51,676 bases of DNA from sequence record PZ534514.1; one strand, written 5' to 3'. The translations under genes and the position numbers were made by a program. Positions within the stretch are counted from its first letter, which is position 1, and each line of letters begins with the position of its first letter. The notes under the pieces were generated by a model. The model had not been told where the DNA came from. It made no database searches and worked only from the letters and a program-made list of their open reading frames with translations. This document shows, in pieces, positions 34,885 to 45,319 of the stretch. This DNA comes from a phage.

Positions 34885-34930
34885 ATTATGCCAGGATTTG
34901 CACCTGGCGTTTTAACAAAAAGTGCTATTT
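34885..34930 (-). promoter_or_regulatory. Promoter-like element, conserved motif family
   Basis: Minus strand AAATAGCACTTTTTGTTAAAAC, hairpin gccagg/cctggc in spacer, CATAAT. Confidence 0.55.
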
Positions 34931-35185
34931 AATATCTGTTGTGACTTGTTGGTGCATTACGTTTTTGCCGCTCCGGTATGTGCTATCCGTTGCGCCATTA
35001 CAATTGGTGTAATAGATTGCTCGACCGTTGTCATAGAATCGGTACGCGGTGCATCCATCAACAGTAAACAGGCGACCGACTTTAAAATCTGACTCCACGC
35101 CTACGACTACCGTTGATTCAGATGCCTTTTCGCATCCGGTCAGGGTAGCAATTGCAATCAAAACTCCAATTAATGCCTTATTCAT
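34925..35185 (-). CDS. Small lipoprotein (second lipoprotein gene)
   Basis: Signal peptide with lipobox LTGC; 86 aa; second gene of the leftward early operon. Confidence 0.7.
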   Translation of the reverse strand: MNKALIGVLIAIATLTGCEKASESTVVVGVESDFKVGRLFTVDGCTAYRFYDNGRAIYYTNCNGATDSTYRSGKNVMHQQVTTDIK

Positions 35186-40743: not shown

Positions 40744-42327
40744 ATGAATTTTTCGTTTGAAACCAATAAACTAACACCAAAACAAATTATCGAATTAGCT
40801 GATGCACAAGGATTGTCTCCGGTGCGCGTGTCCATTCAGGCAAACGGATACCGTCAATCGTCCAGCTTTTGGGGTGAGGTTAATGATGTTAATAACGGAA
40901 ACGATCGCTACCCTGTAATTTCTCTTGGCAATGATGTTGATGTTGTTGGAAAGTTGGCGCGCAACATTGCTCGATCTGTTCAATTCCCTGAATCATCGGC
41001 ATATATGCATTTTATCGGATGTGTGTCTGCTGCAATGCTTGGACGCTTCACTGTTGAGTATCACGGAACGGATCAGCCGACCGCTCTTTATGTTGTTACA
41101 AGCCAGCCTCCTTCAACTGGTAAATCTGCCGTTAACAGCCTGGCACTTGCTCCAATGGTTGCGGAAGTGGAAAGAATTAACGATCAGCGAAAGAAGGAAA
41201 GAAAAAAGATTCAGGCAAAGTTGGCAGGTCTTACAAAAGAGATGAAAAGCGAGCGCTCCGGCGCTGATATGGAATCTCTGTACCAGGAGAAAGAAGATCT
41301 GGAAGAAAAACTGGAAAAGATGTGTGACATCGTTTTCCCTGTGTCCGACACAACGCCGGAAGGACTTGCAAGAATCAACAATCGCCAGGGTAACTTTGCT
41401 GTGATTTCAGACGAGGCAACGAGTATTAACAGCCTTTTAGGTCTGACATATGCCAATAGCGAACGTAAAACCAACAGCGAACTTGTGCTGAAAGCATGGG
41501 ATCATGGTCATGTTTCTATAGCTCGTGCAAACGCTGACAACAATATGAGTTTTAAAGCTCTTGGCTGTATGGCGGTAATTGCCCAGGATGAAACAATCAA
41601 TGCCATCATGGATGCAGGATCGCGCGGTATCGGTGTAAGTGAGCGTTATTTGCTTGTGCGTGAGGAATCATTTTTAGGTCGTCGAAAGTTTGTTGATGAT
41701 AACGGTGATTCGACTTATGAGCCTGTTGATGGAGAACTGAAAAGTCAATATTTTAAGCTGATCCATAACATCATGAGTGAATCAAACATCCAGCTTAAGA
41801 TCAGCAAATCAGCAATGCGAGTTCTTAACATGGCTCGTCAGGAGATGGAGCCGCACCTTGCTGATGGAGGAAAGTATTCGCATACAATGCTGCGCGGTGC
41901 GCTTGGAAAAATGGATAAGCAGGTGATCAGGATTGCTTCGGTTTTGCACACTATCCGCAATTGGTTTAATCCTGGCGGATACCCTCAAAAGTCGAAAGAG
42001 ATTGAGGTTGAAACCGTTCAGGAAGCATTGCTGATGTTTAGCGAGTTGAGCAAAACATACATTAGCGCCGCCAACGCTTCTGGCTACGCTGGTGATGATG
42101 CTGAAATGGGTAAACTAATCGAGATCATCACTCGACACGGCAAGGCTAATAAGGGAATCTTGAATGTTCGCGCCATATATGAGGCTGCACGAAAAGTTAA
42201 GCCGTTTGTTGGTCAGGCTGGCGTAATGAAGCGCATGGAAACGCAACTGCTTCCGATGCTTGAGGAAAGAAATTATATTTGTGTGATTAATGGCGTTGTT
42301 TTCGTAAATCCAACATTGCTGGGGTAA
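40744..42327 (+). CDS. P-loop NTPase-like early protein of unknown function (527 aa)
   Basis: RBS aaaggag; Walker A-like SQPPSTGKSAV; charged coiled-coil segment after it. Confidence 0.7.
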   Translation: MNFSFETNKLTPKQIIELADAQGLSPVRVSIQANGYRQSSSFWGEVNDVNNGNDRYPVISLGNDVDVVGKLARNIARSVQFPESSAYMHFIGCVSAAMLGRFTVEYHGTDQPTALYVVTSQPPSTGKSAVNSLALAPMVAEVERINDQRKKERKKIQAKLAGLTKEMKSERSGADMESLYQEKEDLEEKLEKMCDIVFPVSDTTPEGLARINNRQGNFAVISDEATSINSLLGLTYANSERKTNSELVLKAWDHGHVSIARANADNNMSFKALGCMAVIAQDETINAIMDAGSRGIGVSERYLLVREESFLGRRKFVDDNGDSTYEPVDGELKSQYFKLIHNIMSESNIQLKISKSAMRVLNMARQEMEPHLADGGKYSHTMLRGALGKMDKQVIRIASVLHTIRNWFNPGGYPQKSKEIEVETVQEALLMFSELSKTYISAANASGYAGDDAEMGKLIEIITRHGKANKGILNVRAIYEAARKVKPFVGQAGVMKRMETQLLPMLEERNYICVINGVVFVNPTLLG

Positions 42328-42329
42328 TT

Positions 42330-42722
42330 ATGTTTCTTCTGGATCTGTATCGCTGGTGTGAGTCATTCGAATGGTTTACACGTCAACATATAGCAAAATT
42401 TGTCTTTCAGCATAGAGAATGTGAGCGGCTCGCAAGGGCCGCAGGATTTACGCCGAGAATGTTTGCGACTGCCGTTTCAAAAGAGTTTTGCGCAAGAATG
42501 ATGACCGCTGGTTATCTTGATGGAGTTGGTGGAAAGTTCTGGTGTAAGAAAGGATCAGCAAATCGACCTTTCTCGTTTGAACTTTACAGCCTTGAAGGTA
42601 TGCAAAACGAATGGGTAAGGGATGTTTTAAGGATCGGAGAAATGAGCGATGAAGAATTGTTTACGTCAAATGCTAATAGACAAAATATTGAAGTTCTGCG
42701 CCGTAAGTTCAATCTCACATGA
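42330..42722 (+). CDS. Hypothetical protein
   Basis: 130-aa ORF immediately after the 527-aa gene. Confidence 0.55.
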   Translation: MFLLDLYRWCESFEWFTRQHIAKFVFQHRECERLARAAGFTPRMFATAVSKEFCARMMTAGYLDGVGGKFWCKKGSANRPFSFELYSLEGMQNEWVRDVLRIGEMSDEELFTSNANRQNIEVLRRKFNLT

Positions 42723-42843
42723 TGACTTCATGCACGCAATGTTAACACTCATTCATTCTGACATGCGAGCGTTTGATATATCAGAGCATAATTTGTGTGA
42801 TGATGACGGCGTTTTATTGGTTACTGTAAAGCGTATTGAATAA

Positions 42844-42870
42844 CAAAGGAGGCGTTAAGCCTCCTTTTTG
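42844..42870. terminator. Bidirectional terminator
   Basis: Hairpin aggaggcgttaagcctcct flanked by A-rich and T-run sequence; overlaps the spanin stop. Confidence 0.65.
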
Positions 42871-43253
42871 TTGCCTTTGCGGTAGGAAAAGTAAAGCATA
42901 GTCAAAAGACCACTGAAAATTGCAGCGCAATAGATTATAGGATCGTACCACTTCCTTTGCTCACCCTGCACGACCTGGATTTTATCAGCCTTGATGGTGT
43001 TAGCCTGAATGGTTGATGTAGTGAAATCCTTCTTGCTGGACGTGTCCACCTTATCAACCGCAGATTCCTTTATTGTAGTTTCCTGTTTTGTACTGGTATC
43101 CTGCTTTGCGGTAACGCCAACGGTCTGCTTTACGTTCTCCGCTCCTGCCTGTGCTGTGATTTCCGGCTTACTACCGATTAATCCGGTCAGTGGCGTAACG
43201 CTTGAACATCCAGACAAAATAACAGCGATCGCGATTGCTGATAACTTTCTCAT
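42855..43253 (-). CDS. Unimolecular spanin (T1 gp11-like)
   Basis: N-terminal lipobox ILSGCSS plus C-terminal transmembrane helix IIYCAAIFSGLLTMLYFSY; directly downstream of the endolysin. Confidence 0.75.
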   Translation of the reverse strand: MRKLSAIAIAVILSGCSSVTPLTGLIGSKPEITAQAGAENVKQTVGVTAKQDTSTKQETTIKESAVDKVDTSSKKDFTTSTIQANTIKADKIQVVQGEQRKWYDPIIYCAAIFSGLLTMLYFSYRKGNKKEA

Positions 43254-43255
43254 GA

Positions 43256-43744
43256 TTACAGATCCTTAATGCAATATTTAAATTCCACCGCGCGGCGGTT
43301 GCGCAGTCCTTTAGACGTTTCTTTCTTTCCCGTTTTTGGATTTGTGTATTTTGTCCATCGCCATAACTGATTGCACGCTTCCATATAACGACCGTTATTA
43401 ATCAGCTTAAGCATGGTTGAATTTCTAAAAGCACCAGTGCCAGCATTGTATGTGAATGAATACATTGCCGCGCGCATTGTATCAGGAATGTCAACCTTTA
43501 CACGCTTATCAACTTCATCCTTTGCGATCTTAATATGCTTTGCCAGTAGCGCATCGCACTCTCTCTGTGTGTACGTTTTGCCTGGTATTACGTCAGGTCC
43601 AGTTATTCCGGCGCAAACCGTCAATATCCCAGCAATATCTTTGTACGGCTTATGTTTTACTCCTTCTATTTCCTCCAGTAGCGGAGAAGTAATGGCAAGA
43701 GCAACGCCAAAAGCCGCAGCGGTCACTCTTTGTTTTATACTCAT
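43256..43744 (-). CDS. SAR endolysin (GH24 lysozyme-like)
   Basis: N-terminal weakly hydrophobic segment [16 protein letters not shown], then Glu/Asp/Thr catalytic pattern (EEIEG...[13 protein letters not shown]). Confidence 0.8.
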
Positions 43745-43959
43745 TATTTACCTCTGATCTCAATAGCTTTCTTAATATCACCGCATTCAAGCGCGTCACG
43801 TAGCGCCTTACTATCACGCCAGCGAAGATAAGCGCCCCACATACCAAATGCAGCCATCAAAACTAAGCTGGCTATTGCGATTGTTGTTTGACCAGTAACC
43901 GCGCCAGTGATTGACGCGCCGCCAGTGCCGGAAGTTGCAGCGTTTAAAAAATCTTTCAT
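43744..43959 (-). CDS. Holin (pinholin-like)
   Basis: 71 aa with transmembrane segment(s) and charged C-terminus; ATGA overlap with the endolysin. Confidence 0.7.
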
Positions 43960-44105
43960 GATTAGATCTCCTGTATATAAAAGTCAACAATTAATTGATT
44001 GTATCCTAACCATTGAACGCACAAAAAGGAATAAAAAAAGGGCGAAGCAAAATGCCACGCCCAATTAAATTGATGATTTATATTTATATTTCAATGATTA
44101 AAAGT

Positions 44106-45221
44106 TCAACCAGCCATTTCTGGATAATGCATAAATCGCCCGACTTCTCCGTATTCTTTATCGTAAACAATAACAGCCGCACGGCGACGAGAACGCCACC
44201 CACCGCGCGCCGCATATGCATCTTTTGCCGCCATAGTGCTATGCACTTCAACAATGCCCAGGCTTGTTTCAGTTACTGTCTGATGATGCCAGTGCCCTAC
44301 GTGAGCATACATCATTTTTGAATTGCCGAAGTCTTCGCGCCAGTCTGCCGCGCACATCATTAGCAATGTTTCAGGTTTGCGGATAGTATGCCCGTGATGG
44401 TATGCCAGGAACGTTTTGCCATATTGTGTGTGATGAACTACTCGCGGAGACACATCAACATGCACACGCGGCTCATTCTCATATGCTGCCGCCATTGCTG
44501 CGCGCAACCAGATCATGCCGCTTTGGTCGTGGTTTCCTTCAATAATCTGAATCTCGACGTTTTTGTGTTTTGATAACAGCTTTGTAATTGCTCGACGCAC
44601 TGACCGAATGGCAACGTAGACCAGTTTTGCGTATCGACTATCTTGATCCAATACGTGACCGCTTGCAGGTGTTACCGCTTCCAGTCCGTCGCTGTGAAGC
44701 ATATCACCACCAATCAGCAAGACAGCTTTTTCACTATCCGGCGCGCACTGGATGGAATAATCAATGAAATTATTCATTACGCGCTCTGCTGTTGCTGTAT
44801 CCCAATTCTCGCCGCATTCATGCTTATGCGCCATTGCTCCCAGGTGCATATCAAAGATCGGATACAGTGATAACGTCTCGCTATAATCATTTTGTGATTC
44901 TTGCTGTGGATCAAGTCGAGGAACTTCTTCGCTAAATGCATCCATAGCGGCCTGCATTAATGCTTCTAACTGTTCGCGGTCCTTACTTGTCTTAACCCAT
45001 GTCATAACCACATTGCCATCTTTATCAATTAGCTTTGATTCTCCAGTAACACCAAAACCAGGTGATCCGATGGTTGTAACTTTACCTTGCTTTGCTAATC
45101 GTGCCGCGCGGCGCTCAATGCTGCGAACGTTCATACCATACTCATTAGCGATCTGCTTATATGTCTTTCCCTGCTTGCGCTCATTGATAAATTGTTCATC
45201 TGTGATTTTGATTTGCTTCAT
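44106..45221 (-). CDS. Calcineurin-like metallophosphoesterase with N-terminal HTH
   Basis: ATG at 45221 with RBS aaggag; GDMLHSDG and EGNHDQ motifs; HTH-like YKQIANEYGMNVRSIERR. Confidence 0.7.
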   Translation of the reverse strand: MKQIKITDEQFINERKQGKTYKQIANEYGMNVRSIERRAARLAKQGKVTTIGSPGFGVTGESKLIDKDGNVVMTWVKTSKDREQLEALMQAAMDAFSEEVPRLDPQQESQNDYSETLSLYPIFDMHLGAMAHKHECGENWDTATAERVMNNFIDYSIQCAPDSEKAVLLIGGDMLHSDGLEAVTPASGHVLDQDSRYAKLVYVAIRSVRRAITKLLSKHKNVEIQIIEGNHDQSGMIWLRAAMAAAYENEPRVHVDVSPRVVHHTQYGKTFLAYHHGHTIRKPETLLMMCAADWREDFGNSKMMYAHVGHWHHQTVTETSLGIVEVHSTMAAKDAYAARGGWRSRRRAAVIVYDKEYGEVGRFMHYPEMAG

Positions 45222-45319
45222 CAAAAATTCTCCTTATCTCATTATGACAACATATACAATAGAGATCGCCATCATAACAGGTAAGGGCAAAAGTAACAAA
45301 CGCCACATGATAACAATCC

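Follow-up and report, generated by a model that had tools for sequence, protein, structure and literature searches.

Organization of the locus

The window (the whole 51,676-nucleotide stretch of phage DNA that was analysed; sequence record PZ534514.1) contains three closely packed genes, for a holin, an endolysin and a predicted unimolecular spanin (u-spanin), lying between two hairpins. The features are as follows, in window coordinates.

42855-43253, minus strand: u-spanin gene, 132 aa, from the ORF list
43256-43744, minus strand: endolysin gene, 162 aa, from the ORF list
43744-43959, minus strand: holin gene, 71 aa, from the ORF list
43967-43973, minus strand: holin Shine-Dalgarno sequence CAGGAGA, 8 nt 5' of the ATG, read from the sequence
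42845-42867, both strands: bidirectional intrinsic-terminator-like hairpin with stem AAAGGAGGC/GCCTCCTTT, from folding
44033-44062, minus strand: upstream hairpin GGGCG...CGCCC with seven T, present in the MFE and centroid folds
40744-42843, plus strand: convergent unit of a helicase gene, a gp10-like gene and a 64-aa ORF
44106-45224: DNA repair exonuclease gene (phrog_704, 5e-151)

A preliminary description had assigned a holin, a lysozyme and a spanin to positions 42855-43959, and the outer limits of the three ORFs fill that interval exactly. The holin and endolysin ORFs overlap by 1 nt (TAATG), and a gap of 2 nt separates the endolysin ORF from the spanin ORF. Shine-Dalgarno-like sequences also precede the two distal genes, GAGG upstream of the endolysin start and AAGGA upstream of the spanin start.

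Judged by their relatives, the three ORFs are real genes, and chance ORFs are excluded, because of matches to PHROG families, to Pfam and, by BLASTP, to phage T1. In PHROG the holin matches phrog_2877 ('holin', 1.4e-35) and the spanin phrog_1804 ('Rz-like spanin', 8.9e-50), both over their full length, and the endolysin matches phrog_7 (2.2e-54). The endolysin also matches Pfam Phage_lysozyme (PF00959, 1.4e-36); the same Pfam search gave nothing above threshold for the holin and the spanin. The T1 counterparts are genes 13, 12 and 11, at 42878-43982 of reference NC_005833. The holin is 58% identical to gp13 (E 5e-29), the endolysin 65% identical to gp12 (E 3e-83) and the spanin 47% identical to gp11 over 127 of its 132 residues (E 1e-36). 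The genes stand in like order in the two phages, so that the comparison with T1 genes 11-13 agrees with the earlier proposal that the spanin has the T1 gp11 architecture.

A probable transcription unit

Are the three genes transcribed together? The close packing and the terminator-like hairpins on either side are consistent with the single operon proposed in the preliminary description. The downstream hairpin, at 42845-42867, folds at -15.9 and -20.9 kcal/mol on the two strands (z -3.2 and -3.6), with a U-rich tract next to it in both directions. The end of the spanin gene is built into this structure: the stop codon is inside the loop, and the last codons (KKEA) make up one arm of the stem. 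These properties suggest that the hairpin is a terminator common to the lysis unit and the convergent helicase/gp10 unit. The other hairpin, at 44033-44062, is found 44 nt past the stop of the DNA repair exonuclease gene, and we take it as the upstream boundary of the lysis transcription unit. In T1, terminators are annotated at the two equivalent places, one overlapping the end of gene 11 and the other after gene 16, the orthologue of the gene that precedes our upstream hairpin. Other terminator-like sites, with 5-bp stems, occur inside the coding regions and are attributed to chance (5 sites, against 2.5 +/- 1.7 in shuffled sequences).

A scan with the consensus sigma-70 promoter found no convincing promoter for the lysis unit. 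One weak site, with a -10 overlapping the holin ATG, was returned, where 4.2 are expected by chance.

The endolysin

The endolysin is a lysozyme of the GH24/T4 type, homologous to T1 gp12. Among solved structures it best matches 3HDE, the full-length R21 protein of phage 21 (E 8e-39), with residues 2-159 aligned; RrrD (4ZPU) and truncated R21 (3HDF) are further solved relatives. Residues E27, D36 and T42 align with the Glu-8-Asp-5-Thr triad of R21. The 3HDE alignment also takes in the weakly hydrophobic segment at the N-terminus. The enzyme had been described as a SAR (signal-anchor-release) type of lysozyme. Residues 7-23 are a run of 17 uncharged residues, preceded by K4 and R6, of which 9 (53%) are Ala, Gly, Ser or Thr. 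The segment is marginally hydrophobic, with Kyte-Doolittle (KD) values of 1.33 for a 19-aa and 1.89 for a 15-aa span. The R21 alignment and this composition thus speak for the SAR assignment, and segment 7-23 carries the sequence hallmarks of a SAR domain, the assignment being a prediction. Lysozymes of the P1 Lyz type use a disulfide switch. There is no Cys in segment 7-23, so that a switch of that type is not expected here. The N-terminal extension is shared with T1 gp12 and with the endolysins of Veterinaerplatzvirus and Klebsiella phage RCIP0096, and the latter two are annotated as SAR endolysins. T1 gp12 has itself been called 'also a predicted SAR endolysin' (PMC11447400).

Could the N-terminal segment instead be a cleavable Sec signal peptide, yielding a soluble periplasmic enzyme that is restrained in some other way? 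The hydrophobic stretch is short, at 17 residues, and A-L-A at positions 15-17 offers a possible -3/-1 site for signal peptidase. The stretch also joins the catalytic domain directly, since the 6-residue linker of R21, TGPSGN, is absent in the 3HDE alignment. However, the ALA motif is not conserved, being ALT in T1 and another sequence in Veterinaerplatzvirus, and the segment aligns with the SAR domain of R21, which has been found experimentally to be uncleaved. An Ala/Gly/Ser/Thr content of 53% is typical for SAR domains, and the T1-type endolysins are treated in the literature as SAR endolysins (PMC6139136, PMC11447400, PMC13164509). Moreover, an active muramidase secreted freely would cause premature lysis. 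A cleavable signal peptide is thus a minor possibility, and a very improbable one; we regard the enzyme as a predicted SAR endolysin.

The spanin

The spanin gene is the last of the cassette, following those of the holin and endolysin and ending at the terminator hairpin. The preliminary description had the product as a single spanin with a lipobox and a C-terminal transmembrane (TM) helix, and both elements are found. The N-terminus, MRKLSAIAIAVILSGC, fits a lipobox pattern of the PROSITE type, with LSGC ending at Cys16 and Ser17 at the +2 position. The signal peptide, residues 1-15, has a basic n-region and a hydrophobic h-region, with the lipobox next. By the Lol-avoidance rule, a lipoprotein in which the residue after the lipobox Cys is not Asp is sorted to the outer membrane. 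With Ser rather than Asp at +2, the lipoprotein end of the spanin is predicted to reside in the outer membrane. At the other end of the protein, residues 106-120 form a hydrophobic segment (KD 2.17 over 15 aa; Hessa-scale sum -1.0) that is followed by the basic tail RKGNKKEA. AlphaFold2 (AF2) places a helix at residues 104-129 (block-mean pLDDT 84 and 90 across residues 101-120), and a TM helix is predicted at about 104-126.

The only cysteines are C16, in the lipobox, and C109, within the TM domain (TMD); inspection of the periplasmic domain, from residue 17 to about 103, showed no Cys. Kongari et al. likewise report no periplasmic Cys in any of the 58 u-spanins of their survey (PMC6139136). 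These authors grouped proteins into families at identities of at least 40% over at least 40% of the length (PMC6139136), and the match to T1 gp11 given above has 47% identity over nearly the whole protein. T1 gp11, whose lipobox is also LSGC, is encoded by a gene that complements a λ RzRz1 defect, and gp11-family spanins are found in cassettes with a pinholin and a SAR endolysin (PMC6139136). The assignment of the 132-aa protein as a predicted unimolecular spanin of the T1 gp11 family is thus supported.

A separate o-spanin in another frame was also looked for. When all starts in all frames were scanned across 42700-44100, no credible second ORF with a lipobox was found on the coding strand, and there is no embedded or overlapping o-spanin. 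Two candidates were rejected along the way: an antisense ORF at 43009-43269, whose presumed signal contains acidic residues, and an intergenic ORF of 24-26 aa that ends in Cys.

How well are the two membrane-directed ends conserved? The best match to the spanin is 99.2% identical. A collection of 5.8 billion proteins holds 603 homologues of the spanin, and conservation was counted in the best 120 of the 603. Among these 120 the lipobox is LSGC in 111, another canonical form in 5, LPGC in 3 and missing through fragmentation in 1, so that 116 of the 120 are canonical; Ser is at +2 in 115. The C-terminal hydrophobic segment is present in 119 of the 120, the exception being a truncated entry. The presence of a C-terminal TM helix, on which the earlier description depended, is thus indicated by hydropathy, by the AF2 model and by these homologues. 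C16 is invariant in the alignments, as are P30, Q35, G37, E39, N40, K42 and others in the periplasmic domain. As a side observation, most of the homologues among the matches listed are on contigs of about 50 kb.

The periplasmic domain itself is poorly defined in the AF2 model, which was built from a 32-sequence alignment and has a mean pLDDT of 55: residues 17-76 have pLDDT below 50, with no strands assigned. In the literature the periplasmic domains of u-spanins are predicted to consist mainly of beta strands. The AF2 run gave no coiled-coil prediction. The periplasmic span of 87-89 residues, at about 0.33 nm per residue, would reach at most about 29 nm, which would be just enough to cross the E. 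coli periplasm if the domain is largely extended. Such a reach, attained when extended, fits a tether that later collapses. How u-spanins work in general is still unsolved (PMC6139136).

One might ask whether a lipoprotein encoded beside lysis genes need be a spanin at all, rather than a Cor-like superinfection-exclusion protein or another outer-membrane lipoprotein. Residues 1-63 do have a weak PHROG match to the Cor family (E 3.9e-5), and there is a weak NCBIfam match to TraV lipoprotein (E 0.003) that is below the cut-off. The Cor match is explained by the signal peptide and lipobox that the proteins have in common, and it is far weaker than the full-length match to the Rz-like spanin family. 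The TraV candidate, which scored 18 bits where 44.75 are required, was rejected, the match again reflecting the signal peptide and lipobox. The phage has a true Cor elsewhere in the window, at 6582-6809 (phrog_1119, 9.4e-29), and by phmmer it is not significantly similar to the spanin (E 0.57). Cor proteins, furthermore, do not have the conserved C-terminal TM segment of the spanin homologues, and the protein is 47% identical to the functionally tested T1 gp11. A Cor-like identity is effectively excluded, and we retain the assignment to the gp11 family of spanins.

The holin

What class of holin is encoded here? The protein has a strong TM segment at about residues 26-45 (KD 1.92). Ahead of it, at about 4-22, is a weakly hydrophobic segment rich in Gly, Ala, Ser and Thr (KD 0.68), and after it comes a charged C-terminal tail. 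Other members of the family keep this pattern of a weak segment, a TM segment and a tail. The T1 and TLS holins have been predicted to be class II pinholins with two TMDs (PMC11447400, PMC6139136), and we regard the holin as a predicted class II pinholin. There is no match to the holin families of Pfam and NCBIfam, and BLASTP gave no alignment with a hand-entered sequence of the phage 21 pinholin S21 68. Because of this lack of homology to S21 68 and the Pfam holins, the pinholin class is a functional inference only. The holin has no dual-start motif. DUF3262 was considered and set aside as sub-threshold (21.3 bits, the cut-off being 27).

It is possible, however, that the holin has a single TMD or is a canonical large-hole holin, and that the SAR endolysin is triggered by depolarisation, as with the holin of phage P1. 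Clear hydrophobicity is confined to segment 26-45, and GenBank describes T1 gp13 as having a 'single transmembrane domain'; the lack of homology to the hand-entered S21 68 sequence and to Pfam holins points the same way. On the other hand, the composition of the first segment is conserved, and a hand calculation with the hand-entered sequence put the hydrophobicity of segment 4-22 at or above that of the SAR-type TMD1 of S21 68. The published predictions for the T1 and TLS holins are also of two TMDs. We consider a canonical or single-TMD holin a minor possibility, though one of some weight, and prefer the pinholin reading.

A related proposal joins the two proteins. The endolysin, with a shorter, 17-aa SAR-like segment fused directly to the catalytic Glu and without the 6-residue linker, might be activated in a way unlike R21 and be paired with a single-TMD holin. 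We think this rather unlikely. If true, the SAR pathway would have a separate variant here, one shared by the entire T1-like family and not peculiar to the window.

Relatives of the phage and its cassette

The window is, by nucleotide identity, a Hanrivervirus-type genome (Drexlerviridae, Tempevirinae), that is, a T1-like virulent phage of E. coli. It is about 96-98% identical to phages KarlJaspers, vojen and Fulano1, and its first 25 kb is about 96% identical to Hanrivervirus phages. The cassette DNA is 94-98% identical to that of KarlJaspers (MZ501090), vojen (MN850569), pSf-1 and Fulano1. Between these phages and the window the cassette differs by point changes only, apart from an insertion in KarlJaspers: about 293 extra bp with a 73-aa ORF, by the spanin stop and terminator, that the window and vojen are without. 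Hanrivervirus records, among them those of relatives 97-98% identical, already annotate the holin, the endolysin and the u-spanin (or RzlA, Rz-like spanin), and the lysis cassette is thus already known, in kind and nearly in exact sequence. More widely, the exonuclease-holin-endolysin-spanin core module is present in 508 of 522 Drexlerviridae (PMC13164509).

Is the spanin, then, the strongest lineage marker in the window, as the preliminary description had it? It is a good marker, and to that extent the claim stands; the superlative is overstated, because the gp11 family also occurs in the Autographiviridae and genome-wide identity is far more diagnostic. The Autographiviridae homologues come from Klebsiella phage phiBO1E (Drulisvirus) and Pectobacterium phage Peat1 (Phimunavirus), podoviruses in which the same lipobox and C-terminal TMD are found and the gene order is spanin-holin-lysozyme. 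The gp11-type spanin is therefore a good but non-exclusive marker of lineage.

The cassette bears out the identity of the window as a T1-like virulent coliphage and adds a further spanin to the gp11 family of u-spanins. This copy of the spanin adds nothing beyond T1 gp11 and hundreds of near-identical sequences, and the value of the analysis is limited mainly to correct annotation.

A proposed lysis pathway

What lysis pathway would these genes support? We assign a probability of about 0.9 to the reading that they are the late lysis cassette of a T1-like coliphage, most likely using the pinholin/SAR-endolysin/u-spanin pathway that has been described for phage 21 and T1 (PMC6139136). No observation here speaks against this reading. 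The sequence itself shows how the genes are laid out, their homology to T1 gp13/12/11 and to R21, the catalytic triad, the lipobox and C-terminal TM segment of the spanin, and that a second spanin gene is missing. The dynamic steps, from export and tethering to release upon depolarisation and fusion of the membranes, are inferred from published work on T1 gp11 and phage 21. The three genes would be translated from one transcript, and the 71-aa holin would build up in the inner membrane. The host Sec system would carry the lysozyme across the inner membrane, where it would stay inactive at the periplasmic face, with the weakly hydrophobic N-terminal segment as its tether. The spanin would acquire its lipid at Cys16 and be directed to the outer membrane, as its Ser at +2 predicts, while its C-terminal helix would be kept in the inner membrane, so that the periplasmic domain (87-89 residues) would thread the murein and bridge the two membranes. 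On triggering, the holin would depolarise the membrane; the SAR segment would then exit the bilayer, and the lysozyme would refold and degrade the peptidoglycan. Once the murein mesh no longer restrained it, the spanin would collapse, and the resulting fusion of inner and outer membranes would release the virions. A 2018 paper in J Virol reportedly deals with the localisation of T1 gp11.

Comparison with T1, phage 21 and λ

The closest of the well-known systems is that of T1. The order gp13-12-11 is the same, and the products are 71, 162 and 133 aa long, against 71, 162 and 132 aa here. Both spanins have the LSGC lipobox and a C-terminal TM segment with a KKEA tail, and in both phages a terminator lies over the end of the spanin gene, with a convergent gp10/helicase unit downstream. 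The differences are modest. The endolysin and spanin genes overlap by 1 nt in T1 and are 2 nt apart in the window. T1 also has an HNH endonuclease gene (15) and a small gene (14) between the exonuclease and holin genes, and the window lacks both. An accessory, standalone SH3 (DUF7244) gene is found between exonuclease and holin in 188 of 522 Drexlerviridae genomes (PMC13164509). KanT1 is described as having such an SH3/DUF7244 protein (PMC13164509), to which T1 gene 14 probably corresponds. No homologue of T1 gp14 was found in the window, and the ORF list has no SH3-type ORF in the 146-bp spacer between exonuclease and holin.

With phage 21 the likeness is chiefly in the endolysin. R21 is homologous to the endolysin of the window, with a shared E-8-D-5-T triad and a SAR domain with which the N-terminal segment aligns, although R21 has a 6-residue linker between its SAR segment and the catalytic Glu that is missing here. 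The holin resembles S21 68 in being small, with a weak first segment and then a strong TMD, but it is unrelated to it in sequence (as judged with the hand-entered S21 68 sequence) and does not have the dual-start motif. The two phages part company at the last gene, as phage 21 has a two-component, embedded Rz/Rz1 spanin whereas the window has a u-spanin.

λ Rz/Rz1 offers a similar comparison at the level of the spanin. The λ spanin has two components, while that of the window is one polypeptide, with no embedded or overlapping second gene, and it is without periplasmic Cys, a coiled-coil prediction or sequence similarity to Rz/Rz1. The predicted role is nonetheless alike, to bridge the periplasm and disrupt the outer membrane, and in both cases an outer-membrane lipoprotein end is joined in function to an inner-membrane TMD end.

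The 3' end of the spanin gene

At 42845-42871, the stem and loop of a bidirectional terminator hairpin encode the KKEA that is the conserved C-terminus of the unimolecular spanin, together with the stop codon, so that the end of the protein and the fold of the RNA are mutually constrained. The spanin gene of T1 likewise ends within an overlap with a terminator. This convergent terminator, adjoining the spanin stop at about 42843-42845, is also precisely the point at which the close relative KarlJaspers carries an insertion of about 293 bp (2647-2939 of the compared segment, L001) that contains a 73-aa hypothetical ORF. The same insertion is found in most of the other best matches that aligned in two pieces; vojen, like the window, is without it.

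Two small ORFs converge on the terminator from the helicase side:

42330-42722, + strand, gp10-like ORF of 130 aa directly after the helicase gene (phrog_2794, 4.6e-59)
42649-42843, + strand, ORF of 64 aa (phrog_9539, 2.9e-23)

These ORFs overlap by 74 nt. The product of the first is 49% identical to T1 gp10, and its DNA is 98% identical in KarlJaspers, yet the gene is unannotated in that record.

Upstream of the holin, and other lipoproteins

Of 522 Drexlerviridae, 188 are reported to carry a standalone SH3 (DUF7244) gene ahead of the holin (PMC13164509), a position occupied in T1 by gene 14. No SH3 (DUF7244) gene is present in the exonuclease-holin spacer of the window (43960-44105), and a tblastn search for T1 gp14 across the entire window gave no match. 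Two further small ORFs of the window bear a lipobox:

6582-6809, + strand, Cor superinfection-exclusion lipoprotein, 75 aa (phrog_1119, 9.4e-29)
34925-35185, - strand, lipoprotein of unknown function, 86 aa (phrog_6360, 7.8e-12)

Related records and possible independent transfer of the spanin

About 20 unannotated GenBank records (MG0656xx), titled 'Campylobacter phage' with C. jejuni as host, are 94-99% identical to the window over 42700-44100 and 1-25000. The window is of the E. coli Hanrivervirus type, and the Campylobacter host assignment appears to reflect contamination or mislabelling. The endolysin of Vibrio phage Vc1 is truncated, and the spanin of Citrobacter phage HCF1, a record flagged UNVERIFIED_ASMBLY, has a long aberrant C-terminus; errors of assembly or frameshifts appear to have corrupted the lysis genes in both records.

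Spanins of the gp11 family are not confined to the Drexlerviridae, as they also occur in the Autographiviridae podoviruses phiBO1E (L005, 1501-2744) and Peat1 (L007, 1405-2642). There the gene order is spanin-holin-lysozyme, unlike that of the window, and the lysozymes that accompany the spanin share only about 26% identity with that of the window, which suggests that the spanin gene travels separately from the other genes of the cassette.
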